Shown here: positions 11,884-37,788 of the stretch, piece after piece
Position numbering within the stretch: position 1 is the stretch's first letter
How the letters are laid out: each line of letters opens with the position of its first letter
Assembly (NCBI GenBank): GCA_021432655.1
Contig: MU271352.1
Span: 32,601 to 80,283, forward strand
From: Atractiella rhizophila
Lineage: Eukaryota
Direction: 5' to 3'
DNA: 47,683 nucleotides
The notes under the pieces: generated by a model
Told to the model about the DNA's origin: nothing
The model's database searches: none
The model's input: the letters and a program-made list of their open reading frames with translations, nothing else
Program-made: the position numbers and the translations under genes

Positions 11884-14800
11884 ATGACTCCAAGTCCCTC
11901 CCCAAGTCCTCCTTCCATCGCGTCCACCAGCGCATCCTCGCTCTCCGCCAGCCCTTCCGCCTCCTTGAATTCTCTCAAGAGCAACAACTACACGCCTCCG
12001 CTCTCAAACGACGACGAGCAAGAGTTCAGCCCGCCTTCTGATCAGTCAGGATCGGGGAATGTGGAGGGTGTCGGTGGCATCGGTGGTGGTGGAAGAGGAA
12101 GTTGGGTCGAGGGAGCGAAGGGATTGGAGAGGGGTGGGACTGTTAAGGGTCATGGAAATAATGGTACATTCTCATCTATTTCATTTTCAAAAGGGTGGAG
12201 GTTACGTAGACTTCTACTTTGGGTGGTGTTGACGGACGGGTCTTGATTGGAAGGACGGTCTTGATTTTAGCTTCATGGCAGTATTGCCTGAACTGTCTTA
12301 TGAATGAGCCTTGTCCGTTGATTCAAGCTTCAAGTCTGCGAACACGCGTGGAAATCATTCTAGCGTACTCTCAGAGAGGAGCAGCATCGTTTTCCCCGCC
12401 TTTGAGATGACATCGATGCAGCTTTGCGGAGTGACCATTCTATTCCTTTGTTTTACACTTCTTTCATGCTTCCGTCCATTTTTTCGTGAGTCCTTTCAGA
12501 GAGAGACAAAGGAACCCGAGAAGGTTCGCCTTTTTCCCATTGGAGCAAGGTCGACATGTTTGTGCTGTCCTCTTGCTCCATGGTCTGGAGTGATTCTTTG
12601 TTCCCATAGTCTTTCTTTGGTTCATAGTTAACAATAAGTCGAATACTCCCACCCCTGAGTCATCGATCCCTTTCAGCGTGGACCAATCAGCTATTGTCCC
12701 TTCCTTGATAACCTTTTGCAGACGGATCCAAGAAACCGTTCCCAACTAAAGGCAGAAAAAAACCGGTGGCCCGAAACAAGCAATTGAAATTAAAGAAAGG
12801 AGCCAAAATCCTTGGAAGCCAATCAAGAAAAAGGGGGGCCGAAAAAACAAATTATCTACGTACTGTGGGTTCTCACGGTTTCTTTGGGCTTTCCATAGCC
12901 ATTGATCGGAGAGCGATAAACACATGTCTCAGAGATGTGCACCTTGTTCTCGTCGGAAAGAGGATCGGTGCCCTGGTATGAGCTTGGTGATCTCTCCTCC
13001 GAAAAGCATTGTTATTTATGTAGTTCAATGCCGTTTGTCGCACTGCGCTTTAACATGATGTTTCACGCTCTTTTGTTCAATGGATCCCGAGCTTTCGGTC
13101 TTTTGTTGTTTCTCTGGGAGTGCAGAGCCTTGCAGCAGAGGTTGATTTGTAACAGGCCTCGGCTCTGTGTTCTCACTCCGTTGAGAGCCTGGGGTCTTCC
13201 TAGCGGTCCTCATTTGAAGTTTTCTGCAAATGTGTACAGAGATGGGACCGCACCAGGCCGAAACCAACGGTCTTCCTCGGACTGGGGATGTAGATTGTGG
13301 CATCTCGACAAAGGAAGCTTTTAACAATATTTGTTCGACTCTTTGGCCCACGCGTTGAACATAAAATTTCGGCGGTGGAGAGGTCAAACATATTCTACGT
13401 CAGAGCAAAGCGTAGATGATTCGACGAGCCATTCGTCTGGGTGAGTAATCACTTTGGACACCGTCTTTGTCGTAGATTGAGAATGTGCTGAATGCTCAAA
13501 CACTCCATTCAGACCATTGAAGCTGCTCGGATGACGTGTTGTGTACGGAGAGGTCTCGTTCTCTCTTTCCTGGGCCACTTATCTGTGTTTGTCCATGTTG
13601 TCGGGGAGCGAATCCACTTAAGGTGTCATGAAGGGTTCCCTCTCCTGTGACTTCAGCGTCCCCCCTTAGAAACGCATCTGTTAAAATAAAGGTTCCCAGA
13701 TCTTGAGGCTGATACTCCCCTGCCAGGTATCCCGCGGCAATCGTCTACCTCATACATCAACTCCAAATCTGCAGCATTATCCATAAACGAAGAAGCAGGA
13801 ACATCTTCGATACATTTCAACAACTTCGAACTGCCGCCAAATCACCCATCGCTCTCCCTTCCACCGAAGAAGAAGAAACCGCGGCGTACAAGGAAGCCCA
13901 AGGTGGACCTAACAGCGTATCCACAGCAAGACCTCCTCAAACTGATGGCACAGCTACTAGAGCAGATCGCCCAAGCGAATGACAAACTTCCGCCAGTGCA
14001 GGAGCGGATGAAGAATGCAAGTTCTTCCCGAGATATCAGTGAATCGGCATCCGTTGCTTCTATAGAGTCGAGACCAATCTCAACAGAACCTCTGAGACAT
14101 TATCGTCAAACAACACTCTCGCATCCGCCAACACCATCAACAGATCGACCTCCCGAACCCAAGCGTCTGTACCCATCCGATACAGTGCTTTCAGCTTCAA
14201 AGAAATCCATTGTGTCCCCTCAAGCCCATTTGTGCTTCCATGCACGCAACGTACCCTCAATCTCCATCGAAGCATATCTCATACGAATTCTTAAGTACTG
14301 TCCGACCACGAACGAGGTTTTCTTGTCATTGCTTGTCTATTTCGACCGGATGGCACGGCTGGCCGCTGGCGGAGATCCTGAGAAAGAGGTTGGAGATGAT
14401 GTGTCCATCAGTGAAAAAAGCTCCATTGGGCCAGCTGGCGACAGAGTACCTTTTGCCATCGACAGCTTCAACGTACACCGTCTCGTCATCGCCGGTGTAA
14501 CAGTGGCGAGCAAATTTTTTAGTGATGTCTTTTACACCAACTCGCGCTACGCAAAGGTATGCTTTCAGCTGCGTTCTCATATTATTGTGGCTGAACCCAT
14601 CTTGAGGTTGGCGGCTTACCATTACACGAGCTCAACCAACTGGAACTCCAGTTTCTTCTTTTGAACGACTTCAATCTCATGATTCCGCTAGACGAAATGC
14701 AACGTTACGCGGATCAGCTGCTCGTCTATTGGCCGGGAGGGATGACTGTTCCTCCCGACGAGGAAGAAGAGGAAGAATCGTCAGAAGAGGAAGCAGACGA

Positions 14801-14981
14801 TGATTCGCGTACGGCTTTGATGCAGAACGGAGCCAAGTTGGGATCGCGAAGAAGCATGGACAGGGCTTCAATCTCTGCAACATCCACTATCGCCAGCGAA
14901 AGCGAGGCTTCGACGATCACTCCTGGCAATCGGACACCCGCCGTCAGCGAATCGGGGAGAAACGAGGATATGAAGGAATGA
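11884..14981 (+). CDS. Pho80/Pcl6/Pcl7-like cyclin (Pho85-type CDK partner)
   Basis: FHARNVPSISIEAYLIRILKYCP and NVHRLVIAGVTVASKFFSDVFYTNSRYAK|VGGLPLHELNQLELQFLLLNDF, with intron 14557-14606 and stop at 14981. The core 13727-14981 is secure. Linking the first exon 11884-12163 through a 1563-nt intron is a phase-compatible inference. Confidence 0.85.
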
Positions 14982-16478
14982 AGATTACGCTCAAAAAATG
15001 GAGTGAGCGACAGTGCTAAACGATCAGATTGCTCGAAGTACCGAGAAACTTGAAGTGGATGGTGAACGTTGAAGATTCTAGGTACTATAGTTTGACTTGT
15101 TACTTTTGTTTCGTCCAGTGTCCTATAATTACAGAATCCCTGCGGTGGTTTATTTTGTTTTTCTCCAGCTCAATCCGGCTCGGTTATGTCAACCTCGTTT
15201 GTTTTTCAGTCTCTTACTTTGCAGCATACCCATTTCAATATCTGCCAATCAACACGCTGGAAGCAAACAATGATAAACAGTTAAATATCTTCATTAGCAA
15301 TGCTTTTTTTTATTCCTAACCTGACACAGTCTTCCACTTGAACTTGAACCTGCAACCACTTCAAGTTAAAGGGGGAAGAAGCTTCTTCAGCGATTCCGAT
15401 AGGAATGCCATCTCTTCTTCCGGATAATACCATTGTGCCGGGGCACCGTTTGCTCCTTCAATTTGGTCAGAGGACGTCAGTCATAGAAGCTCGAAGGAGA
15501 ATCCTAGATGGTCCTGGAAAGAGGGGGATAAAACCGTGCTAGTGGATGATGTACCATCTAGGTTAGTACCTCTTTCATCAGTGTTAGTATCATGTAGGGG
15601 ATGTTTTCTACTCTGCTGAAGCCGAAAATAGTGGTGCTACATTTAAATTATCACCCCTAGTTCTCGTTTCGTATGCCGATGTGGGCTTCCAAGTACCAGG
15701 CTTGCCTCAGCCTCAGGAACTTGAACTGTTGAATGGTCTAGAATTTGGGCTATTGCTCCCCGACATGTTCAAGAAATGGTTTAGCTGAAGTAGCACTCTA
15801 CAGAATCGACATCCTTTGGTTCTGTAGATATAACTATTCCGCCTCCAATTTAACAATGCAAAAGGTTTCTTCCTCGTACGCTTTTTCTTGGCTGCTTGCC
15901 AAATTCTTGGCCAGTAAGAGGTTTGTTGATTGTTCCAAGAAAATATGATCTGAAGCGCTGGAGCATCTGACAGCACAGTATTTGGCAACGCCTAATTGAG
16001 GTGACGGAGACTGCTTCTATCTGCGCTGCAGGCTTGTCCAAGTCTTCTAGGAATATAATGTGCTCTGTCCAATGCGCCGCTCTTGGCTTTCCGTTTTCGG
16101 TCCTCACAGACTTTAGGCTAATACCGTTTTGGTCCGTCCTACAGCACTTAATCCTGTTCTTCAAACGTTCTTATCCTATTCAACGTCGGGTTTAAAGAAC
16201 TGGATTTACAGTGCTCTGACGGCATAACAGTTGGATCTACCCCAACATGCCGTGTCGACAACGGGCATGATGCTTATTGGCTGCAGGGCTGGAAGTGAAA
16301 GGTCACTATGCTAGACCCTGTTTTGATCGACGGATCCCGGGCTCTGAAGCTGCAGGAGGCCAGGGGTGCAAAGGTTTCAAAAGTGCTACATTTCCACTTT
16401 TGTTCCGTGAGCATTCGAAGGCACTCAAGCAGGCAAGCTTTTCCTACATCTTTCGGAGACGCATTGATCTATGACAGA

Positions 16479-17804
16479 ATGCATTCTTCACTTCCTCCTG
16501 AACTCTGGCGATACATTTTCACCTTCCTCCTCCCTGCTCCTGGAATTGCACATTATAGAGAAGACCACCGCTCACGCGACCGTCTGACTGGACTCTATGC
16601 CCATGTCCTGGCTTCCCAGAGAGCGTTCCGAGCCCGTCTCTTCTCCTGCGCTCTGGTCTGTCGCTTCTGGTCTGTCATCGCCCAGAAATTGCTCTTCGCC
16701 ACCACCACATTGTCGATCCGGGGGCAGCAAAGTGTGGATTGGCTTGATGGATTGGGAGAGAAACAATCATGGTTGAGGAAAGTAGAGTTGAAAGTTCGAA
16801 CCGGAAGGAGAGAGGTGTATTCTGTGCTTTTCGACAGCTTATTCCAGCATCTGACAAGGATCCGACATTGGACTATCAATGCCCATGAGGCAGATCCGCA
16901 CTCATTCGATCTGGTCCAGATCCTCGTTATATTTTGCCGTCGTTCTGAAAGTCAAACCTCCCGCAAGTTTACACTCGAAATCTGGTTCCCGTTCCATTAT
17001 CCTTCCATGTCTTACCCATTCTTCACACATGAAGACGAGGAAAAAATCGCAATCCTGCTACCCCAAATTTCCGGGGTGGAGGAATTAGTGCTAAGGATGG
17101 AGACCTTGGAGTGTGCATCAAAACTCTTTTCTCCCTCCACATTACCGATGACGCTCGTCGATCAGGTCAAGCTGCCTTTCAAAGACCTTAAACGTCTCGC
17201 CATTTCGGCTCACCACATTATCTTGACCAATGCTCTCGGTTATTTCGCTTCATTCTTTCAAAAAGCAAACGAGGTGCGGAACGGAGGTACTCTTGAAGGC
17301 TTATCGCTCATTCCCCTTGGCGAAGTCGCAGAAGTTCAGTACGAACCTTTGAGCACGGCGCTAGAAACTTTTATTCGAGGTGGTCTAACCAGTTTCATGC
17401 TGGATGCTAACGGCGGTGGACCAGCAGAGAAAGGAGATGGAAGGCTGATGGATTGGTTCTCAGAAATGCTTTTCCGGATGGAAACTCTCGAGAAGCTCGT
17501 CGTTCGAAATCTCGACTGCCTCTTCAGCGACTCGGAGAGCAATCTCCTGCCTTCTTATCCTATGCTCTCTCTTAGCCGGCTGCCACCATTATCACCCGCA
17601 ACGTCACGATCTCTCCGCCGGCGAGAGGCTCGACAGAAGTTCCTCAACTCGGTACCAGATGGTGTCAAGGTCTTGGAGTTCAATGTCCTCACTTTTGATC
17701 AAAATGTGGTCGCAGAAATCAACAGAGGATACGGAAAGAGATGGAGTGGGCTTAAAATGCTTGTATTACCAGATCATGCTGCTGAGATTACTCCAACATC
17801 CTGA
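16479..17804 (+). CDS. F-box-like protein, 441 aa, intronless (paralogue 1)
   Basis: N-terminal LPPELWRYIFTFL...LFSCALVCRFWSVIAQKLLF followed by degenerate leucine-rich (LxxLxL) segments. The start is chosen by alignment with 28556..29857. Confidence 0.85.
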   Translation: MHSSLPPELWRYIFTFLLPAPGIAHYREDHRSRDRLTGLYAHVLASQRAFRARLFSCALVCRFWSVIAQKLLFATTTLSIRGQQSVDWLDGLGEKQSWLRKVELKVRTGRREVYSVLFDSLFQHLTRIRHWTINAHEADPHSFDLVQILVIFCRRSESQTSRKFTLEIWFPFHYPSMSYPFFTHEDEEKIAILLPQISGVEELVLRMETLECASKLFSPSTLPMTLVDQVKLPFKDLKRLAISAHHIILTNALGYFASFFQKANEVRNGGTLEGLSLIPLGEVAEVQYEPLSTALETFIRGGLTSFMLDANGGGPAEKGDGRLMDWFSEMLFRMETLEKLVVRNLDCLFSDSESNLLPSYPMLSLSRLPPLSPATSRSLRRREARQKFLNSVPDGVKVLEFNVLTFDQNVVAEINRGYGKRWSGLKMLVLPDHAAEITPTS

Positions 17805-19251
17805 TGATTACTGCGAGTGGACAATGCCCCTAAGGGCCCCAATAACACCTCACTCACGCTCAAACAATCCTAATCCTAACTGCCAGCGTGTTCCTTAAGC
17901 GACTTGAAAGAGCTTCTGCACTATCTGTGATCTTAGGTGATGAAATCCGCTTGCGTCTTTGTGGAGGAGATTGGAGCTAGAGAGTTCAACTGCACGTGCT
18001 TGTAAGTACGATATATAGCTATGCCCCCACTTTTGAAGGCTGTTGTTCGTCTCTGTTGAATCCCTCACTTCTGTTTGCAACTGCTTTGGGTGTTATTTTA
18101 CGTCTAGACGTCCCCAAGCAAATAGAGAGACAGGGGAAGACACATATATGTACTGGTATTACTCACGTTCTGCTCTCTAACTCTCCTTGTTGACTCTCCT
18201 AACCAACGACATATGTAAGCATCTGAAGTCCTCTACAAGATTCTGAAAAGCTAGAGAAAGCACCCTGCTCCTAATTTATGTTTCTCTTCTTGTCCCCTCG
18301 CTTAAACGGATGTCCACTGCTGCTCACGACACTTCGAGCCCTGCTCGAAATATACTGTATCATTTCGCGACGCACATGTTCCATTTCAATTAATATGGCA
18401 GTTTCCTGACTGTGACTTTAGGCATGGGAGGTAAGTACTGTGCTGGTCATGTCTCTTGTCTAATGGTTGCACAGACGGATTTCCCAACGAAGTATCAGTT
18501 CCGATTTCTCATGGGTTGCTCAGAGCTGACAAGTGTTTACACCAGATAAGTGTGATCCACAAACCCAACCAAACTCCCATGCTTCTTTCACTGAAAGGCT
18601 AAAGAACCCATTTTTCTTCCGCCATCCGACATTGTTGTCATCAATCAAGCGGCACTCAACCCTTTAGGGTCAATGCTGAAAGTCAGGAATGTGTTATATA
18701 AGGATTCTTACGAACAGGCAATTTGTGAGGAGCTACGCAAATAGTGCATGAAGCTTTGGTGGCACACGCTGTCGCCAGGTCTTGATGGATCCTTGGAGCT
18801 TTAAGTATCTTTTCAACCGTCCAATAATCCTGAGCGTCGATAACTGATTTCTAGCTCGAGACTATCTTCCAAAGCTAACAAAATGACTCTGACAGAGTCG
18901 ATTCATTGCCTATTTCGTCCTACGCGAGCGGCGCAGCAGATGCATCGACGCAGAATCCGAGAAGCTAGTTTGGAACGATCAAATGTTCGAACGTGATTCA
19001 AAACGCAATCGAATTTAGTGCAGCTAGTGTCATGATACCACACAGCAATACTGCTACTGAGATTCATCTCACCGCCGTTTGTTTGTCGCCCAAATTATCG
19101 CCAAATGATCGGCAGACGCAAAGACGCATTTTGGTGTTCCGAAAGATGAATCAGGCGCGTCATAGGTTGTCCTTCGTACGGACCCTGCTGAATGACAGGA
19201 CTACAAAAGGGTTTAAAGGCGAAAATTTTTGCTCAGACGCTAAACGAGAAC

Positions 19252-22200
19252 ATGTCGACCGCAGAGAGTAGACGGAAAAAACCAATCTGTCGACAATTTA
19301 ATTCTCCTAGTGGTTGCAAGCGTGCGAACTGCCAGTTCGAACACAAACGAATCCCGGATCGAAGTTCCTCATCCTCGGAACAGGCACTTGCACCTTTGGG
19401 GGTATGTCGAGACTTTTGGACTTCTGGGAAATGCTCGAGACCCGTAGGACGTTGCAAGTTTGAACACCGACAGCGCAATGGTCCAAAGGCATCTGCTTCT
19501 CCCTCGCAATCTTCCGTTCCGACCCCAATGTCTCATATCCTCGCTGAAGCTATGAATGAAGACGCATCCTCTACTAAAGGGCCGTCTCCTTTTGCGGCGT
19601 GGAAGAAAGTGAAGAAAGCGCTAGAGGAAAAGACATCTTTCTGTTCGGTGCATGAGGCGGAAATGTTTGCCTATGATCTGATGATTGCTGGAAGAGAGAA
19701 TGACGAGCTAAATTGGAGGCTGGAAGATGTGCAGAAGGTTCTGCTTGATTTATCGAAGTTGCCTGGGAATGGGATCGAACTCCTTAAGCAACTTCTCAAG
19801 TTTAACATCGTGACTACAGAAGGAGGAAACCGAGTGACGCATCAGACGGAGCTCTCATTCCAACGCGGCTTCATGCCTCTCGTGACTGTAAGTTCGCATG
19901 CTGATTCGTATAACACATTGACTTTGACATAGTATCTTACCTCCGATGCCGTCACCAAAACTCTCCATCATAAGTGAGTTGCTCATTCTATTGCCCTCCA
20001 TCTTCTGAATAGAACGGCAATAGATCTGCCAATATTCTCTATACTCTAGTGGATCAGTCGATTGACGACCTCGTTGCGCGTTTACCAGTCTGTTTGAGAG
20101 CTTTAGTTGAGAAGAAGAGTGTTACATCTTCAGTCAACTACAACAGAATCGGATTCAAACCCGAAAGTTTCGTTCAAATATTTGTACCCATCATCCAGCT
20201 ATTTCAAGAGTGTGTCTCCTTTCTCACAGAATTTCCTTACCTGATGCTCCATAGACACCTCTCGCGATGGAAAAACGCTCGCCTCGAACATCCTATAGTC
20301 GCTTCCGAACTCCTCCCCTCTATGGACGAATCCATCGAAGCTTGGGCAAAAGATATGCTCTCTCCCTGCCCAACGTTTCGTGACACCATCAGTGTTAAGT
20401 CCCTTGAGGAACGAACACACGCCGTTTCTTCGGTTCGTCGACACTTCCAGAACTTGAAAGACAGCTTCTTGCTACGCCCCGCGCCAGTGGTGCTCAAGAA
20501 ACCACAGCAGAATCTTAAGATGAAGGGCGAGACAGGTGTTCTGGAGGTCGTCGATTTAGAGCTGATGCACGAGTACTATGAGCCTCCAGGAGGACGACAC
20601 GATAACGATCATTCTGATTTCCGCAATGTTTCAGTCATCCCGACCCATCAGGAGCTCATGTCTCAGAAACCTTCTTACCTGCCATTTAACATCCCAGGAG
20701 CACCTCATCATCTTGTAGAAGGAAGCATCGATCGACATGTTGATATTTTATTCCGCCTCATGCGTGAAGACTTCGTTGGACCTCTCAAGAAGGCAATTTT
20801 GAGCTTGATCGGGGAAATGGAAAAGGGTGAGAATAATTTGAAGAAAGTCTTCAAGAAGAAGGAAGGTGGACGTTATCGTCTTCAGAACATCGAAGCAATG
20901 GATTTAAACGTTTACCTCAATATTACATTTCTCAACCTCGACATGAAAAAGGACGTTCTTCTCGACATGCTAGTAACCCTACCATTTCCGTCTACCTCAA
21001 CATTGGAACCGGGGGCTCTTGTAGGGATCATTTATCGCCAAGAAGGAATAAAAGTTGGAGGGGTGAGCCAAAAATGGAAAGTGCATTTAGGGACGGTCGC
21101 GAAGACTGCCCCGAAAAAAAATGGGAGCACTGTCCTTTCTGTCACTTTTTTCGAATCGGAGGCATACGGTTTTGCGATCTCATCGCTCACCAAACGCGCC
21201 AACAATACGTCATCAAATTTTGTACTCTTTGAAGCTGGATCTATTCTTTTGGAAAGCTTCAGACCCTTTCTAGAGGCGCTTCAGCAACTAGACACCTTCA
21301 GGATGCCTCTTTCCCAATATATTGGAGGCTCGACAGCGAAAGGTTATATACCTCAACCCATCTCCGCCCCTCTTAAAGCTCGAAAGCCAGGTTTTCGATG
21401 GAAACTCGATTGTCTACTTGCCGATGGCAATAGTGCCGTTTACGACCCACTCAATCCCCTTTCGAGAGCAGCCGCTCGAGCTACGTTGGGCCAAAAGACT
21501 GGACTAGATCCCTCTCAGATCGATGCACTACTCGATTGTTTGTCGAGAGAACTAGCAATTGTCGAAGGGTGAAATTTCATCCATTGGGCTGGTTGTATTT
21601 TCTGACGCTCCGTTGGACAGACCTCCAGGAACGGGGAAAAGCTATCTAGGTTGCGAGTTGACTCGAGTCTTGTTGAACAACGGTTACTCTGGTATCCTGA
21701 CACTCTGTTTCACGAACCATGCCTTGGATCAATTTTTGGAGCACCTTCTCGACGGAAACGTCACAAAGAAGCTGATCAGAATCGGAGCGCGTTCAAAAAG
21801 CGACAAACTCACTGCCTACAACCTACGCGAAGCCGTCGAAGCATTGGCACAGTTAGGACGGCGAAGAGCTACGTGGCAAGAATACAAGTTTCTGAAGTCC
21901 GAACGTGAACAAGGAGAAAAACGGCTGAAGGAAGTATGCGACCAAATTAGTAGGGCCGTCAAAAAAGAGCTCAATTGGTCGTATTACCTCACAGATTTCC
22001 TTTACGGAAATAGCAAGTATGAAGAGTCTCTCGACAGCCTTCTCAACCCCCCTCAGTTTTTGGTTGAGCTTGTTGGTAACTGGGAGATCGCTGGCATGGA
22101 GGGTCACCCACTTCATTCACATCAGGCAGAATGGTGGCTGCATGGGGCGGATCTGAAATTTCTTTCTCAAGCTGCCGCGAACTTACTTAGTACTCAGCAT

Positions 22201-25200
22201 TCCTCCATTCTTTCAGCGTCACAATCTTATTTCGCACGGTTGAACGATATTGATGATAGCGGGATCGACGAACATCAATCACTCCAATGGGACCAACAAG
22301 AACATCTTCGACAGCAACTGGCTTCGTGGTGTGAACCGAAAACTAATCGAACACTGACCATTTTGCTTCAAACCAATGACGTTTGGTCATTCTCAATTCT
22401 CGAAAGGCGTAAAGTGTTTGAATTTTGGCAATCTGAGGCCGCAGTAGAGCTGTCAAAGGAGCTGGAAAGACTTCGTCGGCAACAGAAACATGTTGAGACC
22501 GAGATCAGAGAACTTCGTGATATGGAATCCCTGCAAATCCTACGCAAGGCGGAAGTGATAGGCTGTACTACCACCGGTGCAGCAAAAATCTCCACGCTTT
22601 TGAAGAGCGTTGCTCCTCGCGTTCTCATCGTGGAGGAAGCTGGCGAGGTTCTTGAGTCCCAGATCATTGTAAGCATATTCAAGAGCATTCTTGCTTCGAA
22701 CTAATACCTGAACAGGCGAATTTGGTGCCGTCCATCGAGTTTTTGATCCTCATTGGCGATCACAAACAACTTCGTCCACACATTTCCAGCCATCATTTGT
22801 CGCTAGACAGTAAAGGGGGACAACTTTTCAGACTTGACGAGAGTTTATTCGAACGACTGGTTAGGTAAATTCAACATCACTGAAATGCCCTGCTCATGGC
22901 CTTCAGACGAGGTTTATCGCTCTCTGTTCTCGATGTACAACGTAGGATGCGACCTGAAATATCCGAGCTCATCAGGGTATCTTTCCATTATTTCTCAAAG
23001 ACTACTGCTGAGCATAAGAGAGCAGAAACCACTTTACCCAAATCTCGTTGACCATACCAATGTTATGAGATATCCTCAGTATGATCCCCACTACTGATGT
23101 CAATGCTGACAGAAACGTTAGTGTTAAAGGATTGGCCAAGGATATGGTCTTTTTCAATCATTCCCACCGGGAAGATCAGGAGGACATGGTTTCTTCGAGC
23201 AAGACTAATCAGTGGGAGGTTAGCACGATTTATATGCTGGTTGACATTTTCATCTAACAATCCTAGGTGGAAATGATCGGCGAGCTCGTCCTACATCTAA
23301 TTCGTCAAGGGTACAATCGACCGGGTGATATAGCTGTCCTCACTGGTTACCTGGGTCAGGTATGTTTCCAGATTTTCATTGGTTGGAAGTGAAATAATCG
23401 GCACATTTGTAGCTGTTTAAATTGAAGAAACACCTTGGCAAATTGGCTTTGACCGTAGTTCTCGACGATAGAGACAAGGCAGATCTGATAGCAGCCCTTG
23501 GGGAAGAAATGGCGGTGGAACTGGAGCAGCCTGCAGAGACTATCGTGAAGAGAACTACGGCAGCTGCTGAAGTGAGATTATACAGCATGAGCAGGACATT
23601 ACTCAACCTTCTTGCAGGTAATTTGTAGAACTATTGACAACTTCCAGGGCGAAGAAGCAAAAATCATCATCCTTTCACTGGTGCGCAATTCGGGAATGTC
23701 GACAGATTCTGAGGACGACAATACCCCAATAAGCGGAACGATAGGGTTTTTGAAGGTTTGTGCTTGCCACACTTGTAAAGGAGTTTGCGCTGATGATGAT
23801 GTCGGCTCAGTCGCCCAATAGAACGAATGTCGCACTGTCGCGAGCCAAACACGGTTTGTATGTTTTAGGAAACGCATCCCTCCTACGACAGCGGAGCCCG
23901 ATCTGGCGAGAAGTACTTCAGGTCATGGCTTCCACGAACTCCATCCTGCCCGGACTGCCAATCCGGTGTGAGAATCATCCAGACGATATAGTGGAACTGG
24001 TGAATGAGGTTGGAGTCTTGCCATTGCTCGCGCCTGACGGCGGTTGTCAAAGACTTTGCAGCGCTCGACTCAAATGTGGTCACACTTGTAAATTGAGGTC
24101 AGAATGTTTCCTCAGCTCCATAATGGCATCTTATTCCTCTTACCTTAGATGCCATCCAGACGACCCTAACGTATGTCCGCTCCATTCATTAAGTCATGGC
24201 GGTGACCCAAGCTTCAGCATGTTGCTTTTCGATGTCCTGAGCCCTGTCCCCGATTGCTGGCGCCATGCTCGCATCCATGCCCCAAGTTCTGTTACGAGAC
24301 GTGCGGTAACTGCGGCTTTCCGGTTCTCAACATCCAGCTTCCTTGTGGTCATACCCAAAAAGACGGAACATGTTATCAGCAACAGCACCCGGAAACAGTT
24401 CGATGTCAAGCTCTTGTTCGAAAGGTTCTCCGATGCGGTCACGCATCATTAATACCCTGCTCTCAGAATATTGAAGAGGTTATCTGCAATCAACCATGCG
24501 GTGGAGCGCTGGACTGTCGACATGAGATGTGCCAAGCGAGATGCTGCGATTGTCCGAGACTGAACACAGGGTCTCACAGCCCTCACAAATGCGAACGGCC
24601 CTTACAATGCAAACATGTCTGCCAGTCAACCGCCTGCTGTTTAGCAGCTCAAACGAACTGCCCGCCTTGCTTGTCCGCTTGTTCGAAGAAATGTCAACAT
24701 TTCAACTGTTCTGAAGGCAGGGAGTGAGTATTTTCTTCACATTTACTCTTCTCTAATATTTCGCACAGTGCGCACAAATGCGGGTAAGCGATGGATATCC
24801 AATACTACAATATCAACTCTCATCCGCTGCTCGTTAGGGATCCATGCAAACCGTGCTTGGAGCCCTGCATTTGGGAGTGTAGACACCGCGGAAGCTGCCT
24901 TGTACCCTGTGGCCAGGTTAGCTACTTATTCTTTGTCTCGCGCACAGACTTAAATAACCTTTTACTAAGCCCTGTTCACGCTTGCCATGCGACGAGCCAT
25001 GCCCTAATTCATTGCCCTGCCGCTGTCCGTGTCCCTCCTTTTGTGGAGAGCGGTGTGACTTGCAGAAATGCCCTCTTCATGCAACTGATCAAGAAAAGGA
25101 TCAAGTAGTCGACTTGATAGAGATGAGGACGCTTCGAGATATTATCGAGGAAGTTTTGTCAGGAGAACAGCGCCTTCTTGCTCTGGATTGCGGTCATGTC

Positions 25201-26835
25201 TTCAGTGCAGAGACTCTCGATGGTAAGAGAGCCTTAGCGAATTTCGTTCCTAAAGTATGCAACATAGGCTTGTACGAGATCCAAAAATTCTACAAGGTGG
25301 ATTCTCGGGGGCAGTTTGTTGGCCTAGACCATCCCTCGTTCTCAGAGATGGTACCCCTCTCCTGCCCTCACTGTCGAACTATTATCACCCATAAAAACGT
25401 GTATCGATACGGCAGAATTATCAAGAGAATCGAGCTGGAAGTTCAAGAGCGCAATCAGATGCAGCGGATGAGCACCCGAATAGAGCTCAAAAAACGAGAG
25501 CTTGCAATTATGGACTACGAAGAGAACAAGAAATCGCTGGAGGCAGCTCTTGGCAAATCCGACGCTCAGGTCCTTGCAGAAGTTGTCAACGAGCGTGATT
25601 TCGAACCGCAACTAACGCAAAGATTGAGCGCCATTGTCAACGACGATTCTACCTTTGTTCCTCCTCTAGCCAATTTTAAGGATCTTCGGGTATATGGTTT
25701 CTCTCCCCCTGTTTCCAAGCTTTGGGCTACCACTCTGCAGCCCATTTTTGGACTTTACAAACAGATATTCGACCTGACGGAACAAAAATCGCAACACACC
25801 ATTGCGTACGAGAGCGCTTTCGCTCATCTCTACCGGAATGAGAAGGTTTTGTTCGAAGATGGTGCTGTTCGTGTGCGGGATGCTCACCGTTCTGCGATGG
25901 AAGCCGCAACCACAAAAATCGGCTGCCCAAAACCGCAAGCTGACACAATATCCACGATAAAGCTGATTTGGCTGTCTCTGCAGTCACGATACCAGATTCT
26001 TGCCGCGTCCCAAGCTCTGGCTACGCACGTTTCAAGGGTCGCTTCTCTTCCTGGACAATCTGCAGCCGAAGTCGTAGCAGCTATCAAGTCGAAGGAGAAA
26101 CAATTGTGTCTGCTCGATAAATTAAAAAATTTTATTCTTGAAACCTGCCTTCGAGATGCGAAACGGGCACTGAGGCTAGCGTACGAATCGACTTCCTTGA
26201 AACTGGCCATCCAAGGTCACTTCCATGTCTTTTCGTCCTCTTTTCGGCTTAACCGACTGTCTGTCGAGCGCAAGCTCGATCAAATGTCGACAGAAGGACA
26301 GAGGCCATCTGATATAGCCGATGAAGCGGAGCGGAAAATGAACTGTGAATATCACCTTCATCTCTCCGCTTTACATGACAAAATATTCTCCTCCTTCACG
26401 GATCAGATCAAGGAAGCTCGAGAACAGCTCCAAAAAGTGCTGTCTTTATGGAAGAAAATGATAGATACAACAAGAAAAGGCGTCTTTTACGACCAAGTCT
26501 CAGACGAAGAGACCATATCTATCCTCAAAGCTCTCAAACATGACATTGGTTCGACAAATGGTCATTTCTTTCGGTGCCCCGAAGGCCATCCATTTACGAT
26601 AGGCGAATGTGGAGGGGCCATGCAGGTTCGTCAACTTTAATCGGTTTTGCTGGCGCTACCCGTTAACTAACTTGTTCTAATGTTGCCTCAGGTCTCGAAC
26701 TGTCCTCAATGTGGAAGCGTTATAGGCGGTAGCAATCATCAACTCGCAGAAGGTAACTCCAGGGATAGAAGAATGGAGGAGCTCTCGCTCCAAGCAGGAT
26801 ATGGAGTTCAAATGCAACACTGGGGTGAACCGTAG
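19252..26835 (+). CDS. ZNFX1-like protein: two CCCH fingers, UPF1-like SF1 helicase, NF-X1-type zinc fingers, RING-like segment, C-terminal RZ finger; multi-exon
   Basis: GGRHDNDHSDFRNVSVIPT; Walker A EG|PPGTGKS (intron 21569-21620); Walker B VEEAGE; IGDHKQLRP; QRRMRPEIS; TIDNFQGEEA; NRTNVALSRAKHGLY; Cys/His repeats at 24040-25080; CGHVFSAETLDG...CPHCR; CPEGHPFTIGECGGAMQ|VSNCPQCGSVIGGSNH; TAG at 26833-26835. Confidence 0.93.
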
Positions 26836-27628
26836 ATGATCGATGAGCACTGAAAGCACGAACATGCCGAAGTTGCAAATATTGAACGCAAGATCGACGG
26901 AAATCATGAAATAGGTTGAACGAAATAAAATGCAATTCACAAGTCCTCACGAGCTCGCCATATGATAAGAGCATTCTTGCCCTGTTTGCCAGCTTTGCCT
27001 TTGTAGAGTTAGTGCTGCCAGCCACACGCGAAAATCTTCGCCTAGCCGAGCCGTCGCATTGTTGAACGACACGCGCTAAGCAGTCACACAAAGTCATCAG
27101 TTACCGGAAGGAAAGAGCCTTAAAGAGGCTGTGAACAACTTGGGACGGTGGGGCAAGTTTCAACTTCCTGGAAAAAACAACCCTGAAAACCCCCGCCTAA
27201 GGAAGTAATCCTGGTGGAAAAGAAGGAAAAAGACAAGCCGGCCCGCCGGAATTTGCCTGGTGCCGGGGGTCCGAAGCCGAAACAAAAAAGGGAAAACTCA
27301 ACCCAAAACCAAGGGTAAAAACACCAGAGAGAAAAATCTCCTCCTCTCCCCCAGAACAAAATATATGAGAGCGCGCTCATTCTTAGGCACTCGCGGGAGC
27401 GGACCAGGAATGAGGATCTTAGATATAATATGTCAACTAAGGTTCGTTGACTTTGTGTCATTATTATATGGTTCATGCATGTCCAGTCCATATTGAAACT
27501 GATGGCAGCTGGTCTATGCTATAATACAGGCTTCACCTGAAATCTGAAGGATGCAAATGTAAACAGAGCCATAAAGCATGCTCATTCTCTTCTTCTAGGT
27601 CTAGCCAAATCGGTATTTTTCTGCCTTC

Positions 27629-28486
27629 ATGGCGTCTTCCTCCGAGTCCCAATATGCATACAAGTCCAGCAACTTCCCTCTCTTCTACGATCTCTGGACC
27701 GATAACCTTTTCGGAAACGGACCATCTGAAGATTCGCCAATCTACAACAAACTTATTCTATCTTCTATCGCTTCGAAATCAGGACCGATTGTCGCCGTAG
27801 ATCTCGCTACAGGCACTGGGCGCGTGGTGAAACAGCAAACTGCATTGTTATCCACAGAAGACAGAGAAAAGCTGCTGTGGAAGGCTATCGACCACTCGGC
27901 ATCCATGGTGGAACGTGCTGAGAGCACTTTCAATCGGCTCCCCTCCTCTGAAATCGAAGGGACCAAGGTAGATTGGATTGTCTGCGAGGCCGAGGGTTTG
28001 GAGAATGTTGTCTCTGAAGCAGATTATCTCTTCTTCTCAGCTGGATCTATCGCACATATCGTCACTTCTGAGGAGGTGTTAATGAGTCTTCGAGCGATAG
28101 GAAAGGTGTTAAGTAAGGGGGGGAGGGCCATTATATCGACCTTGAAATTGGAGGAGGACGGAGCCGCAGCTTCTGATGGGGAGGCAGATTTTGGGCGGGC
28201 GATGGAGCTTCTGATACCAGATGGAGAATACGCTGATGGAAAGAAGCGCAAGTTCAAGAAGTCGAAAACGAATACGGATAGAAGCGAGGGTGGAGTGCTC
28301 AAGGAGAACTTCGAGATTGAGATGTGGGAGGAAGATAAGAAGGCTTGGAGCGAGAAAGTGAATTGGACGTTGAGGGAATGGTCGGAGGGTGAACTTGCAA
28401 AGTTGGTTGAGCAGGCTGGATTAGATCTGGTAGAGAAAAGAGAGGGAGGGATTCAGTGGTTCTGGATTCTGAGGCGAAAAGATTAA
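27629..28486 (+). CDS. Class I SAM-dependent methyltransferase, 285 aa, intronless, substrate unknown
   Basis: Motif I VDLATGTGRV, acidic post-I AIDHSASMVERA, and VLSKGGRAII. Confidence 0.9.
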   Translation: MASSSESQYAYKSSNFPLFYDLWTDNLFGNGPSEDSPIYNKLILSSIASKSGPIVAVDLATGTGRVVKQQTALLSTEDREKLLWKAIDHSASMVERAESTFNRLPSSEIEGTKVDWIVCEAEGLENVVSEADYLFFSAGSIAHIVTSEEVLMSLRAIGKVLSKGGRAIISTLKLEEDGAAASDGEADFGRAMELLIPDGEYADGKKRKFKKSKTNTDRSEGGVLKENFEIEMWEEDKKAWSEKVNWTLREWSEGELAKLVEQAGLDLVEKREGGIQWFWILRRKD

Positions 28487-28555
28487 TCCAATGCACTGAC
28501 TAGTTTAATGCAAAAACGAAGTATTTAATCGTAAAGAGTGGTTCAGCCGCACTCT

Positions 28556-29857
28556 TTAAATTATCCAACCGCCATCACCGTAAGCATCTAGTCTCCATCC
28601 GTCCAATTCAGAGCTACAATCCGGCAAGATTATTGTCGCGTGCGAACCATACTTTGCAATGCGTTGCCTAACAACATCGACTAAAGCCTCCTCTGCAGAG
28701 AGAGAATCGAACTCAAGCCTAATGACACGCGTCGGTATCGCGCGAAGGAGTCTCTCTCTTGGGTCGGATTGTGGGTAAGGCTCAGCAGCAGGAGGCGGCG
28801 ACCTTCGCATAGAAGGATAAGCAGATTGGGTACCGCTGTTAGTGAAGAGACAATCTAAGTTGCGAAGAACGAGCTTTTCGAGAACCGTTATCCGGGGTAG
28901 GACGGCTGCAAGCCAGTCCATAACCAAATAGTCACCCTTCTCGACGTCTAGCATGAAGCCATGCAACCCTCCATGTTTATTGAAGATGTCGAGACATTGC
29001 GTCAAGGAGTCGCAATGCTCTGTCTGGAGTTCCCCGAGCGGTATGAGCGATATTTCTTGCAGTCTGGCAGGTACCGACCCAGGTTCTACCAAGGAAGCGA
29101 GATAGGCGAGCGTGTCCACCAGCAATGAGGGATGGGCAGAAATGGCGAGTCGTTGGACGTTTCTAAACGGGGTTGGTTCCACATCGACCCGTGCGGGTCG
29201 ACTTGAAGGCGAGAACAGCTTTGTTCCACATTCTAGACTCTTCATCCTCAACACCAACTCCTCCATCCCATCGATCTGAGGCAACAAAGCAGCGATTCTC
29301 TTCTCGTCCTCGGTGGAGAAAAAGGAGTAAGTCATAGACGGGTAGTGCAACGGAAACCAAATTTCGAGCGTGAAGTTTGTTGTGTTCCTCTGAGGACGAT
29401 CACGGAAGGAAGAGAGGATATGGACGAGGTCGAATGCTTCAGGCTGCGCATCGTATGCGTAAAGAATCCAGTGCCTGACGCCAGTTGCGGACGCGAATAA
29501 TCGCTCGAAAACTAAGGAGTAGTCCTCCTTCCTTCCAGTTCGAAACCCCACCTCGACTTTCCTCAGCCAGTCCACTTTCTTTCCCATGCCTTCAATCAAG
29601 TTCAACCTTTGCGGCTGGCTGATGATAAAGGTTGTGGTGGTAAATAGAAGCTCTTGAGCGATGACAGACCAAAAGCGACACACTAAGGAGCAGGAGAGGA
29701 GATTATCCCGGAAGGCTCGTTGGGAAGTGAGGACGCGGGAATAGAGTCCCGTGAGGCGGTCGCGTGAGCGGTGGTCTTCGCCATAGCGAGTGATGGCTGG
29801 AGCGGGAAGGAAGAAGGTGAAAATACGACGCAAAAGTTCAGGTGGGAGAAAATCCAT
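28556..29857 (-). CDS. F-box-like protein, 433 aa, intronless (paralogue 2)
   Basis: MDFLPPELLRRIFTFFLP...LLSCSLVCRFWSVIAQELLF. Shares EDHRSRDRLTGLY, FTLEIWFPxHYPSM, EELVLRM and LEKLVxRNLDCLF with 16479..17804. Confidence 0.87.
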   Translation of the reverse strand: MDFLPPELLRRIFTFFLPAPAITRYGEDHRSRDRLTGLYSRVLTSQRAFRDNLLSCSLVCRFWSVIAQELLFTTTTFIISQPQRLNLIEGMGKKVDWLRKVEVGFRTGRKEDYSLVFERLFASATGVRHWILYAYDAQPEAFDLVHILSSFRDRPQRNTTNFTLEIWFPLHYPSMTYSFFSTEDEKRIAALLPQIDGMEELVLRMKSLECGTKLFSPSSRPARVDVEPTPFRNVQRLAISAHPSLLVDTLAYLASLVEPGSVPARLQEISLIPLGELQTEHCDSLTQCLDIFNKHGGLHGFMLDVEKGDYLVMDWLAAVLPRITVLEKLVLRNLDCLFTNSGTQSAYPSMRRSPPPAAEPYPQSDPRERLLRAIPTRVIRLEFDSLSAEEALVDVVRQRIAKYGSHATIILPDCSSELDGWRLDAYGDGGWII

Positions 29858-31435
29858 ATTTCAAGCTTAAAACAAGGAATCAATAACAATTAGACAATAC
29901 CGAGTTCACACCTACCTGTCATCACTTAAGTAGGGGAATAAACAACGTTATCAGTGAGAGGACTGATTTTTAAACCCAATGCTACTTTATGACAACGAAT
30001 GCAGACCCGGCGTCGGTGCTGTGTGAAGGAGAAGACCATCATGTTCCGTCATGTCCTCCGACCGTGGCATGTTTCCCGGTACCAGTGCAAGTCTTCAGGA
30101 GTCGGCACTTCCTTTTCGTGTTCCTTGGTATTCAGGCCTCGGTGTAAGTCACCGACTATCGTTTGGTTGATTACCAAGGTGACATAATCGCCATGGTGGC
30201 AGATGGAGGTTAGAAATAAGGGTCTCCTCTTTAGGTGGAGGGGACGCACTGAAATCAGGATAGAGGAACGAAAGGATTGAATCTGAAGATAAAGTACGAT
30301 GGGCACTCAGGCTGAAATTTCACCTGGTGAACATGATCGATGCATATTCCTACGGGCTCTAGATCAATGTACTTGTGATGTGAGCAGATCATCAAGCATG
30401 GTGAATGGGGGCAACATGGGTTACCCCAAACTTGTTCATAAGCAATCGTTCATTATTTGTCGCGTTACTGAAGAGCTAACGTCCTCGTGTTGACGACGGA
30501 TATCATCTTACAACAAAAGCCACCCAAACGCCAAAGAGTGCACAACCCATTGAACTGAAAGTTGATGGAAGTAAGACCAGGACGGCGTTTCATTGTCCAA
30601 AAGGCTTACGGGTTGACACCTTTCAATACCAACGTGCCATCCTTGCAATTCGCAACTTCGCCAACTTCTGTTGGTGCTCACTCAACGCTTCCAAGTCTCT
30701 CTTCATTTATTGTCTTTGGTGTAAAGATACAAGCAGACTCCGAGACACAAAGATCGCTCAAGGGTGTCCAGAGATCAAGGCTCCGACCGGAGGCCCACAT
30801 TTTGGTGGGCTGGGGAGCTTCCACGAATCAAGCAATCAAGCGACCAACTTGAACCAACAACCAGGGTCCCTCGCAAGCGGCTGAGCTCTGGCGATTAGGC
30901 AGTTTATAGGAGGAACTCAGCCGATAGTTTAGGCGGCTACGCTAGTTAGGAGGAGAGATTTGAAGTCAACTGGACAACAGGCAATTTGCTGGTCACTATT
31001 TGTTTGCGGCGTCCTGCAACTAAAGGTGAGCTCTATATCTTTGAAAACTGGGAGTTCGTTCTGTAAACAATCACTACATTTTGTCTCTTTATCGCCCTTC
31101 TGCCTTGGATACCTGTGGAGCTCTCAGATAGAAGTGAGCAGCCCAGCTCCACGCGCCCAATCCCAACACACTGCTATTGTTCTCAAACCAAGCGAATGAT
31201 AAGACATGCACGCGAACGAGTAGTCTCGCTCTTTGAGCCATGCGCTTCCGTGCAGACAGAAACTTTTCAGCCTTTCTACATGAATCCGAAAAGCCGTGAT
31301 ATTGACCATGATTAATATATTTCTCATCTACTCTTTCCCTGATACATGTGGAAGTGAGAGGATAAGCAGTTTGTGGCAAGCTCATTAACTGACAAACTTA
31401 TGCTGCCTTAAAGTGTCATATTACAGTCATTCAAC

Positions 31436-33937
31436 ATGTCCGTCCCCCTTCGCCCCATCCGGACCTCCTCATCCTCTGGCGCGGCATACTCGTCTCTCCC
31501 TTCCACTTCAACCTCCTCCCTCCCCCTCCACCATTCTCAAGGACATGCGAGACGGCGCTCTATCGAACAACAACAAGATCAACTGACTGAAATCATCATG
31601 GGTACTGGCGGGAACGAAGGGGAGGATGGAGAGGACGACGAGTTTGAAGACATATTATTGGATGGAGACGACGATGACTGGTTAGGCCGGATGCGCAAAC
31701 GGCTCTTCCCTCCCCTCTCTCCTAGAAGAGCATCAGGCTGGAAATCAATGCGGGTTGGAGAAGCGGAGGGTGAGGGGAGGTGGATGAAAGCTTGGAAGAA
31801 GGTCTGGACGGCGCTTGGCGCGTTTTTCGAGAAACATTGGTGGAAATTCGTACCTCTCTTCCTCCTTGCAGTCATCGCTTTCCCTTTCATACTCTCCGAT
31901 CCTCAACCTTCAAAAACGGCTTCAAATTCAGAAGACGCCAACTCAGAAGCCGATAACCCACCATCGAAAGTCGTCTTCAACCCAGAATCGTACCTTGATA
32001 CACCACTACATGAAGATCTTCAACGGCCATGGGACTTTGGAAAGGATTTAATACGCGGTGTGAACCTCGGAGGATGGCTGGTTCTTGAGCCTTTCATCTC
32101 CCCCGGACTGTTCGATCCAACGATTGCAGACGAATGGGTGCTATCCACAAAGCTAAGGAAAGAGGGGAAACTATCGTACGACTTTCATTTTCCAGGTTGA
32201 TTACAGCGTTGACGAGATGAGGAAGGACGATTTCGAACCATTATGCAACTTTCATAACCAGGGACGATTTCGTGCAAATCAAAGAGGCAGGTCTCAATTG
32301 GGTACGTATACCGATCCCATATTGGGCGTTGGGGGATATTTGGGATGTGGAAGAGGAGCCTTATTTGGTAGGAGAGAGTTGGGAGTATTTCCTGCGCGCT
32401 GTAGGGTGGGCAAGGGAGTTGTGCGTCCGTCCAAGCTCGTGGGACAACAGACTCTGATGATACCGGCGCTGTACAGGGGACTTCGAATATGTCTCGACCT
32501 CCACTCGGTACCTGGGAGTGCAAATGGCTGGAACCACGGAGGCCGTGTTAGTTCCCCTGTTATTAAGGACGAAGGGAGGTTAATCAAGGGTGAAGAAAGA
32601 CAGGCTCCATCAACTTCCTCCACGGCCAAATGGGTGTCGTTAACGCCCAACGAACGCTCAATTACATCCGTGCACTTGTCGAATGGGCTTCTAGGGATGG
32701 GAACAAAGAGGTTGTCCCTATGGTGGAGCTTGTTAATGAGATCTTCAAGAATATAGTGGGAGATGAGGAGGTGCGGCACTTGTACGTCCCGTCCCTCTTT
32801 CGCTCTAAGATGTAATGAACCCAACACTGACGCTTTGATGTTGAAGCTATACGGAGGCGTACAGACTCGTTCGGCAGATCACAGGTGTGGGAGGAGGGCC
32901 AGTAGTTGCAATGCACGACGGATTCAGAAGCGGACAAAAACAATGGAAGCGTTTCCTGGAAGGAAATGATCGTGCGTTCTCCCTCCCCGCCCTGCAACAA
33001 CCTAATCATCTGACTGTGTCCCAGGCATTGCATTAGACAGTCACTCCTACCTGACCTTTGGAAAAGCGCCAGTGAACGACTCCCTTGACATCCAGGCTTC
33101 AAGAGCTTGCGAAAAGTATGGAGTCGCTTACAATGATTCGATGAGGGATTTCGGGTTTTCGTTCTGTGGCGAGTGGAGTCTTGCGGTCAATGACTGTGGG
33201 ATGGTACCTTCTTGCCCAATTTCATCAACCTTGCGCTAATCCTACAGAGATAGTACCTGAATGGCGTCACTCAGGGTGCACGGTATGAAGGCAGTTATGC
33301 CTATGGCAATGAAGAGTCATACGATCCTATAGGGAGCTGTAAAGAGTGGAACGAATATTGGAACTGGTCTCCTGAGCGGAGACAAGGCTTGAAACAGGTA
33401 GCACAAGCGTTCATGTCGAGCACCAGGGTGCGCTGTTCTTTGGCTCCTCTTGCAGTAGCTGAAAGTCGGTGGGAACAGAACTTCTTCTTCTGGACTTGGA
33501 AAATAGGTCCAAAGAAGGATAGCGAGCATCCCCCGAATCCATTCTGGTCGTATTCTCTGGGTCTCGAATACGACTACGTGCCCACGTTCACAACGCCACA
33601 ATCGATAGAAGAGACGAATCATTTCTGCGACAGCAAGTTCCCAGGATCCACACGGTCATATTGGGATGGCGTTATGCGAATTGGGGATGGGACAGTAGAT
33701 CCAAAACAACTGAACCAATACGGCCAATGGCCTCCAGCAGCGCTCGCTGGTTTGCGGACAGACCATCTACCCACTTTGGTCAAAGGAGGAAAACCTCTTA
33801 TTCTGAGACCATTAAGAGATGTTCAGGATGATGGCGAGTGGTACGAACGTAAAGCGGGATGCGAGGCAAGCTATAAAGGTATTTGGGCAGGTGTGATGGA
33901 GGAAGTGGACGGGGATTGGTGTAGGAAGAATTTGTAG
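31436..33937 (+). CDS. Glycoside hydrolase family 5 exo-beta-1,3-glucanase-like protein with N-terminal membrane anchor; multi-exon
   Basis: TM segment [65 protein letters not shown]; acid/base ELVNE; MHDGF; nucleophile [17 protein letters not shown]. Confidence 0.93.
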
Positions 33938-34322
33938 TCGTCTAGAATAATATTTCGCCTGTGAAAAGCATTACATTTCCCGACACAATAGTTTTCGAGC
34001 TCAGATGTGTCCCTCAACAATCCAAGGTGAAAAATTTGACATGTACTGTTGATTTCACAGAGATACGTTATATCACAGTAAATGCAGCAAAAGTGGACAT
34101 GGAAGGCGGATTTCTCGTTGCCGTCAGGTAACATGCCACGAGCCATCGTATGGGCATGCGGATTTTTTTCTTACTTACTCAATAAAACTTCAGTAGAAGT
34201 TTCATGGTCTCCTGAAATAGCTCGCTATTCTACCCTATAGTAAACTCTAACCAAATGGTGATACCAAACGCCTTCCATAAACAACCCTGTACCCATCAAG
34301 CCCATCTAGATGCATGAGAAGT

Positions 34323-37606: not shown

Positions 37607-37788
37607 CGTGTTATTGTGTGGTTTGCCTGCTCAAAAGGAAAAGTTTGGATGCAAGATTAGGTTCGGCCCTTTGCAAGCGGACAGAAAACACGACGCGTAA
37701 GAACCTCACAAATCATCACTCTGCACCTTCAGCACCTGCCACAAAACACTACACAGCATCACCATCACAGTGATAGAACATCATTATC
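37607..37788. promoter_or_regulatory. Probable bidirectional promoter between NOP16 and RPN8
   Basis: Only 182 bp separate the two divergent ATGs. No specific sites are assigned. Confidence 0.6.

Follow-up and report, generated by a model that had tools for sequence, protein, structure and literature searches.

In the fungus Atractiella rhizophila, a gene for an orthologue of the RNA helicase and E3 ubiquitin ligase ZNFX1 and a gene for an S-adenosylmethionine (SAM)-dependent methyltransferase lie between two F-box/leucine-rich repeat (LRR) genes. We analysed them in a window of 47,683 nucleotides (assembly GCA_021432655.1, contig MU271352.1, positions 32,601 to 80,283), to which all positions below refer unless another scaffold is named. 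The four genes are enclosed in a segment that is present on the scaffold of the window, C173, and absent from a second, collinear scaffold of the same genome, C35. Database proteins that match F-box gene 1 and the helicase are labelled Atractiella rhizophila. We consider it probable that the four genes make up an accessory segment, specific to a haplotype, at a hyperdivergent site that is prone to rearrangement and lies between housekeeping genes, and not a purpose-built pathway; joint work of the four genes as one pathway is unproven. An earlier note, made from the letters of this DNA, had proposed that positions 16479..29857 hold a co-inherited ubiquitin-based defence module. Co-inheritance holds in the physical sense, as the four genes and their promoters form the segment that is present here and absent from C35, and the real unit exceeds the one first proposed, reaching from about 15631 to 30780; a functional module, on the other hand, is unsupported.

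The segment and its alternative on a collinear scaffold

A DNA search with positions 15000-31400 matched C35 at both ends. The two scaffolds are collinear and in the same orientation over positions 8514-15630 (93.6% identity) and 30781-39363 (95.7%), with collinearity continuing to about 44800; the sequence between, which comprises the four genes and 0.8-0.9 kb upstream of each F-box gene, has no counterpart in C35. The four block proteins gave no match in 110 kb of C35. Between the same flanks C35 carries a different filling of 46.7 kb, which includes retroelements of the copia and gypsy types, an element with a tyrosine recombinase and a NOD-like receptor (NLR) gene of patatin-STAND-TPR architecture. 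Since C35 lacks exactly 15631-30780, the four genes behave as one presence/absence unit, and we infer that they travel together as such at a hyperdivergent site, with C173 and C35 as allelic versions of it.

The left junction on C35 is marked by a 1,316-bp non-autonomous DNA element (C35:72968-74283, L113) that bears inverted CACTG ends together with a TA duplication. Its exact empty site lies in the window at about 15630, and about 26 bp of homology resume after it, to about 15657. Beyond this, just one stretch of the segment (Table 1) matches the C35 filling, at 67% identity as compared with 92-96% in the flanks, and no further genome copies of it were found. No terminal repeats were seen at the segment ends beyond a 10-bp chance match, and the segment lacks in this respect the marks of a cargo transposon, although an old element could have lost them. 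Inverted similarity within the block is limited to the F-box coding sequences. Further stretches private to C35, of 8.1 and 4.6 kb, lie nearby, and structural differences are therefore frequent in this region. The C35 filling contains a gap of 347 N, whose edges have no similarity to the block.

The one informative RNA-like run, X3, consists of spliced contigs and carries the right junction in its C35 form and the letter of C35 at 7 of 8 flank sites, together with transcripts of the block. The helicase, the methyltransferase and F-box gene 1 stand on separate spliced contigs in this run; F-box gene 2 is barely covered and the other three genes are covered, at contig depths that are unable to rank the genes. 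A loose RNA end at 18677 led to scaffold C148, which holds just a further copy of the intergenic repeat and no second block.

Where the window and X3 differ, the window letter is the alphabetically earlier one in 90 of 114 cases, and in 31 of the 32 listed inside the block. The comparison with C35 likewise gave runs of up to 42 alphabetically biased changes, of all types (0 of 5,000 shuffles). This bias in letter order indicates that the assembly flattened heterozygous sites, and we infer from it that two alleles of the block were sequenced. A second block copy has probably been collapsed into this scaffold, and hemizygosity of ZNFX1, which we had assumed at first, was dropped in view of the same bias. 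Partial second copies were found for all 5 sampled stretches that were scored, and two extra near-identical copies for 2 of the 5, as three or more haplotypes, or added duplications, would produce.

Table 1. Positions of the genes, the segment and neighbouring features
Feature	Position	Strand	Remarks
F-box/LRR gene 1	16479..17804	+	441 aa from ATG 16479; database model 483 aa
ZNFX1 orthologue	19252..26835	+	20 exons, 2,216 aa
Class I SAM-dependent methyltransferase	27629..28486	+	285 aa, single copy; 5' leader intron near 27440-27598
F-box/LRR gene 2	28556..29857	-	433 aa, inverted paralogue of gene 1
Presence/absence segment	15631..30780		15,150 bp; present on this scaffold (C173) only, against collinear G000:C35
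Sole segment stretch with counterpart in the C35 filling	15671..15832	+	C35:81730-81898, 67% identity, 7 kb into the filling
Patatin-STAND-TPR gene	C35:88377-92387		one frame save a stop at an apparent short intron
Degenerate dispersed repeat between F-box gene 1 and helicase	18358..18963		69-79% copies on C148, C472, C757
Two further ATG-started open reading frames of at least 80 codons	26720-27491	-	overlap helicase end and methyltransferase leader
Left flank, cyclin gene exon (PF08613)	13690..14664	+	common to C35
Right flank, multi-exon gene	31412..33937	+	common to C35; GH5 glucanase-like by eye

The genes of the segment

The helicase was modelled by a search over GT/GC-AG boundaries, which gave one open frame interrupted by 19 GT-AG introns of 42-66 nt; at least three of these introns are seen among the 15 listed of the 34 splice joints in X3. 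The protein has two N-terminal CCCH fingers, a superfamily 1 (SF1), Upf1-like helicase, a Cys-rich stalk of NF-X1 type, a RING/Miz-like motif, a helical region and an RZ finger. Its Walker motifs are GPPGTGKS at 726 and an EE-type Walker B, EEAGE, at 1064, and it has Pfam matches to AAA_11 and AAA_12. The stalk holds 50 Cys in residues 1401-1700, conserved in alignments, and the stalk exon that was scanned gave no match to Pfam NF-X1. In the RING/Miz-like motif (1706-1752) the pattern C-x-H-x-F ... C-x-x-C is invariant in 40 aligned sequences; RING matches are weak (E 0.035 and 0.046), and a fold search with the Miz region was dominated by helical repeats. The RZ finger (PF20173) lies above cut-off, and the C-terminus matches RNF213. 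Residues C2153, H2157, C2173 and C2176 are the predicted zinc ligands, and C2164 and H2185 fall on the positions of the human nucleophile and base; all six are spaced as in human ZNFX1 (+4, +11, +20, +23, +32), where C1849, H1853, C1869 and C1872 bind zinc, C1860 is the nucleophile and H1881 the base (10.1101/2025.10.14.682297).

Human ZNFX1 (PDB 9q9z) is by far the best solved-structure match of the helicase (E 1e-89). Scoring of 8,000 candidates against the C-terminal exon retrieved 112 proteins. The best of them, at 26-33% over the whole query, come from the basidiomycetes, namely mushrooms, Rhodotorula, Pseudozyma and Kwoniella. The RZ pattern is present in 101 of the 112, and both the catalytic Cys and His in 97 of these 101. 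The helicase is the sole RZ-finger locus found in the genome. Judged by its sequence, it is an ordinary basidiomycete ZNFX1 orthologue, not an unusual one, and a credible RNA-activated E3, which upholds the earlier identification of a ZNFX1-like helicase.

Likeness to the human protein extends to the SF1 helicase with its deviant EE-type Walker B, the Cys-rich stalk, a candidate RING/Miz-like motif and the identical RZ spacing, whereas the two N-terminal CCCH fingers set the fungal protein apart. Human ZNFX1 has been described as a two-site E3, self-contained and RNA-activated, that modifies itself with ubiquitin and, through its own activity, is turned over by the proteasome (10.1101/2025.09.05.674436). 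The accessible text of the two ZNFX1 preprints (10.1101/2025.09.05.674436 and 10.1101/2025.10.14.682297) mentions neither fungal members nor F-box proteins, Skp1-cullin-F-box (SCF) ligases, Skp1 or cullin; no F-box partners are described there for the human protein, whereas here two F-box genes adjoin. The fungal ZNFX1 homologues Hrr1 of S. pombe and SAD-3 of N. crassa act in small-RNA silencing and, as far as the accessible part of that source goes, lack the zinc-finger domain (10.1101/220111), unlike the window protein, which keeps both the finger stalk and the RZ finger. A literature search, with most subscription papers and supplements outside its reach, turned up no functional study of a fungal ZNFX1 of the RZ type.

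Some further observations concern helicase sequences. The X3 run differs from the window at 27 or more sites in the helicase exons (20366-26514); 15 of the 27 listed differences change a residue and 12 are silent, against 1 residue-changing and 13 silent codons in the flanking cyclin between the two scaffolds. Broken fragments of helicase motifs V-VI, with an intron and 70-88% DNA identity, occur in repeated sequence on at least three contigs (G000:C653, L122:679-1230; C315, L123:7280-8068; C1928) and probably reflect transposon capture. A second ZNFX1-like helicase, without an RZ finger and followed by what appear by eye to be three AAA-like modules, lies on G000:C402 (L012:6879-9653 and L013:35-5231 (-)). 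An open reading frame about 2.9 kb upstream of it looked F-box-like by eye; neither Pfam nor the genome-trained profile introduced below supported it, and it was not counted.

The two F-box genes are, as the earlier note had described, paralogues that point inward around the helicase and the methyltransferase; they share 50% identity over 434 columns (E 1e-139) and are reciprocal best matches in the genome. The distance of 69 bp between the stop codons of the methyltransferase and F-box gene 2 was found as reported, and a hairpin between these convergent stops scored at chance level (z -1.2 and -0.9). Both genes had been called intronless, which is right just for the coding parts considered in the earlier note; F-box gene 1 has a 45-nt intron just 5' of ATG 16479, as X3 skips 45 nt (joint 16429/16475) in a way that fits a GC-AG intron at about 16433-16477, and the database model, whose start lies further upstream, splices it out. 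The only other matches to the pair in the genome are two copies of 29-30% identity on other contigs, and no relatives outside this genome were found among 7,999 scored candidates. The nearest Atlas clusters are basidiomycete F-box proteins.

The F-box motifs of the pair fall below the Pfam cut-off, at 20 and 21.6 bits against 24.3 (PF12937, E 0.0006 and 0.0002); a profile trained within this genome, on 35 of 40 further F-box loci, recognised them with E 1.5e-5 and 8.9e-7. A structural model built from 4 sequences is an alternating strand-helix LRR solenoid with a predicted local distance difference test (pLDDT) score of 62, and under 50 in the F-box head. Its top fold matches are LRR proteins, including FBXL17, TIR1, Dia2 and Skp2: FBXL17 (6w66_B) aligns with Z 13.9 and a root mean square deviation of 8.0 over 293 residues, and Skp2 with Z 11.7 and 8.0 over 262. 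The predicted plan of an N-terminal F-box-like motif followed by a beta-alpha LRR solenoid would be that of FBXL-type adaptors of SCF ligases (FBXL17, Skp2, Dia2, TIR1/COI1), from which the pair differs by about 30 extra residues inside the F-box and by its score below the Pfam cut-off; LRR proteins without an F-box match the model equally well or better (RanGAP, Z 15.9).

The duplication that produced the pair is old. The proportion of synonymous differences (pS) is 0.72, synonymous divergence (dS) is about 2.3, near saturation, and non-synonymous divergence (dN) about 0.39; the dN/dS of about 0.17 denotes purifying selection, and both copies are intact. Identity falls from head to tail (75-57-42-34%; first 80 residues 75%, last 110 residues 34%). 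The duplication is confined to coding sequence, the flanks of the two copies being unrelated.

F-box genes are abundant in this genome. When 150 of 459 candidates were scored, at least 148 matches exceeded the cut-off, and 56 of 148 lay no more than 20 kb from another, where uniform placement would give about 11%. The close pairs (n=34) are mostly tandem (29), with 3 divergent and 2 convergent; one convergent pair elsewhere in the genome brackets a phosphatase/HAD gene. In 40 ten-kb stretches chosen blind and spaced over contigs 2-395, the genome-trained profile found an F-box at E<=0.02 in 5 (95% interval 4-27%; best reversed control 0.096), and 2 scored at the level of the window's F-box genes (95% interval 0.6-17%). 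The first figure rests on the genome-trained profile because Pfam alone matched no F-box in the 120 open reading frames of at least 200 aa from these stretches. Given the number of matches, their clustering and the proportion of sampled stretches, an F-box neighbour is unremarkable here, and a local copy is common once one is present. The paralogy around the block exceeds chance, while a mere F-box neighbour is not rare. The earlier note had named many genome-wide copies of this F-box family as a point that would tell against its module, and such abundance is found in part, in the form of at least 148 F-box matches that are locally clustered. Skp1-like loci number at least three (two on G000:C110, one on C301), each split over exons, a number in step with the F-box expansion.

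The methyltransferase lies just under the Pfam cut-off (E 1.3e-5), with a template modelling (TM) score of 0.85 to a fungal methyltransferase cluster, and it has motif I of the Rossmann-like fold, D-x-x-T-G-T-G, conserved in 24 sequences. The splice joint 27439/27597 in X3 supports its leader intron. At an E of 0.001 or lower it has 88 relatives, of which the best shares 37% identity; those with solved structures are diverse small-molecule and other methyltransferases (E 3e-6 or weaker). Of 30 clusters of relatives that were looked up, 10 carry an organism name, and all 10 belong to what we take to be ascomycete genera, in contrast to the helicase, whose closest relatives are basidiomycete. 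No organism was common to helicase and methyltransferase relatives among the named rows (locus tags and accessions). Horizontal transfer was considered: in a quick tree of 79 rows the gene fell, on a long branch and weakly supported, outside the named groups of ascomycetes, and transfer is not claimed. Fusion to F-box or helicase domains was absent from the 10 longer relatives scanned, and the analyses made here gave no ties of the methyltransferase to ubiquitin or RNA. A complex prediction with F-box protein 1 (residues 70-441) scored 0.00, which is evidence neither way. A metagenome scan with the methyltransferase alignment gave 2 loci from 598 pattern matches, one of 1.4 kb and one bacterial-looking; neither had a ZNFX1 or F-box match in this single scan, in which both loci were uninformative. 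Upstream of the leader exon, positions 27100-27400 form an odd homopolymer-rich stretch that could be a promoter or low-quality sequence. Besides the four genes, the segment's ATG-started open reading frames of at least 80 codons are just the two minus-strand ones of Table 1.

Explanations of the arrangement

On the reading we prefer, an accessory segment, the ZNFX1 orthologue would bind single-stranded RNA through its helicase, and ubiquitin would pass via the RING/Miz-like site, as the E2-binding site, to the cysteine C2164 of the RZ finger, H2185 serving as base; this protein alone would mark or sequester foreign or silenced RNA, as human ZNFX1 does. The F-box/LRR pair would be SCF adaptors with separate substrates, drawn from a very large lineage-specific expansion, in which the Skp1-binding head has been conserved and the substrate ends have diverged, and the methyltransferase would be an unrelated passenger. 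An F-box gene may have arrived beside the helicase, as elsewhere in the genome, and long ago have been copied, inverted, to the far side. The whole segment would be gained, lost or replaced as one piece because, we propose, all four genes are dispensable and the flanking genes are not. The functional ubiquitin module that had been suggested for these genes is not supported: human ZNFX1 is a self-contained E3, F-box genes are numerous and locally clustered, and the named methyltransferase relatives are ascomycete. Several observations nevertheless weigh against a mere accessory segment. Its ends lie 0.8-0.9 kb outside the F-box start codons and enclose exactly four genes, and the alternative filling too holds an immune-type gene; the sole homologous stretch inside is 67% identical, where the flanks reach 92-96%, as would be expected had the fillings diverged long ago; both F-box copies are intact, under purifying selection and undispersed despite their old paralogy; and two close, inverted paralogues on either side of a gene should be a rarer sight than one F-box neighbour.

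An alternative is a balanced defence cassette, in which ZNFX1 would sense viral or transposon RNA, the F-box adaptors would restrain the helicase or degrade viral proteins, and the NLR would be the alternative. In its favour, the presence/absence unit equals the four genes, divergence at the segment edge is deep, the helicase keeps every RZ catalytic residue, and the gene in the C35 filling has the architecture of the patatin-NOD-TPR allorecognition NLRs PLP-1 of N. crassa and het-z of P. anserina, described in the accessible parts of these sources along with balanced NLR loci associated with transposons (PMC10197012, PMC13449251). The C35 gene shares with them the order of patatin, STAND and TPR and a setting among transposons; unlike them, it comes from a family of dozens of copies and is the alternative filling, not a member of the block. 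There are 115 patatin matches in the genome, the NLR has dozens of relatives of 72-83% identity, and the chance of a patatin gene in 46.7 kb is about 0.10 before allowing for the association of NLR genes with transposons. The abundance of both F-box and patatin-NLR genes thus counts against the cassette, as do the self-ubiquitylation of human ZNFX1 and its turnover through its own E3 activity, the lack of any F-box or SCF link in the accessible text of 10.1101/2025.09.05.674436 and 10.1101/2025.10.14.682297, and the absence of basidiomycetes from the named methyltransferase relatives. We regard such a cassette as unlikely. Its more specific form, a balanced immune locus with two non-homologous fillings, one with an RNA-sensing ZNFX1 E3 and two dedicated F-box/LRR adaptors to control or assist it and the other with a patatin-NLR cell-death receptor, seems to us a shade less likely still. 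The fillings of C35 and the window are non-homologous, as they would be at an idiomorphic or balanced allorecognition locus.

Plain chance adjacency at a normal single locus, with C35 as a paralogous duplicate or a misjoined scaffold, is likewise an unlikely explanation. It would be in keeping with the flattening of letters inside the block too (31 of 32; 90 of 114 overall) and the probable collapse of a second block copy, with the two extra near-identical copies for 2 of 5 sampled stretches, and with the 347-N gap in the C35 filling. However, both flanks of C35 match in order and orientation, the edges of its gap are unlike the block, the left junction is clean, with the 1,316-bp element, its terminal inverted repeats and TA duplication, and homology resuming after it, and X3 has both the C35 right junction and the C35 letter at 7 of 8 flank sites. 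Very improbable, in our estimate, is a selfish toxin-antidote or drive system, in which the methyltransferase or an unrestrained ZNFX1 would harm nuclei or spores without the segment and the F-box proteins would be antidotes that degrade it. Alternative hyperdivergent haplotypes of Caenorhabditis have repeatedly made use of F-box proteins as antidotes, according to the accessible part of the source (PMC13733741), and here two F-box genes flank, on a haplotype-specific segment, a methyltransferase without a close relative (best 37%); yet this methyltransferase is one of a family conserved in fungi, with SAM-binding motifs intact and no pointer to toxicity, and the helicase is a conserved orthologue.

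The Caenorhabditis haplotypes also resemble the present site, as far as that source is accessible, in their alternative gene content between conserved flanks and in F-box genes from a large lineage-specific expansion (PMC13733741); they differ in that the site described here belongs to a fungus and has as its cargo a methyltransferase and a conserved RNA helicase-E3. All parts of the segment belong to known families, as new members, and the haplotype-specific segment itself adds one more example to a category already described. The F-box neighbourhood alone is ordinary for this genome; the interest lies in basidiomycetes keeping a ZNFX1 that is full-length, resembles the animal protein and has its E3 residues intact, and in a site that would show the swapping of F-box and NLR genes between haplotypes in a genome with hundreds of such genes. 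If nuclei or strains without the segment exist, they would be natural ZNFX1 null alleles, in which the restriction of viruses or transposons by ubiquitylation would be directly testable. Should the locus prove balanced, with F-box adaptors dedicated to ZNFX1, it would be the first presence/absence polymorphism of ZNFX1 and the first ZNFX1-SCF link in any organism, as well as a natural knock-out for setting fungal ZNFX1 against mycoviruses and transposons.

Neighbouring sequences

Two exons of the multi-exon gene on the right flank gave no match in a Pfam scan. At positions 12661-13055, within the collinear left flank, 42 successive differences from C35 all have the alphabetically earlier base in the window, a sign of flattened ambiguity codes; such flattening can introduce bias when variants or selection are analysed on this assembly. 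Related genes of 66-71% DNA identity stand in tandem at positions 39700-47000; C35 has a different number of copies, and the exons scanned matched no Pfam family. Positions 3170-7850, some 8 kb upstream of the block, hold a decayed gypsy-type long terminal repeat retroelement with relatives inside the C35 filling.

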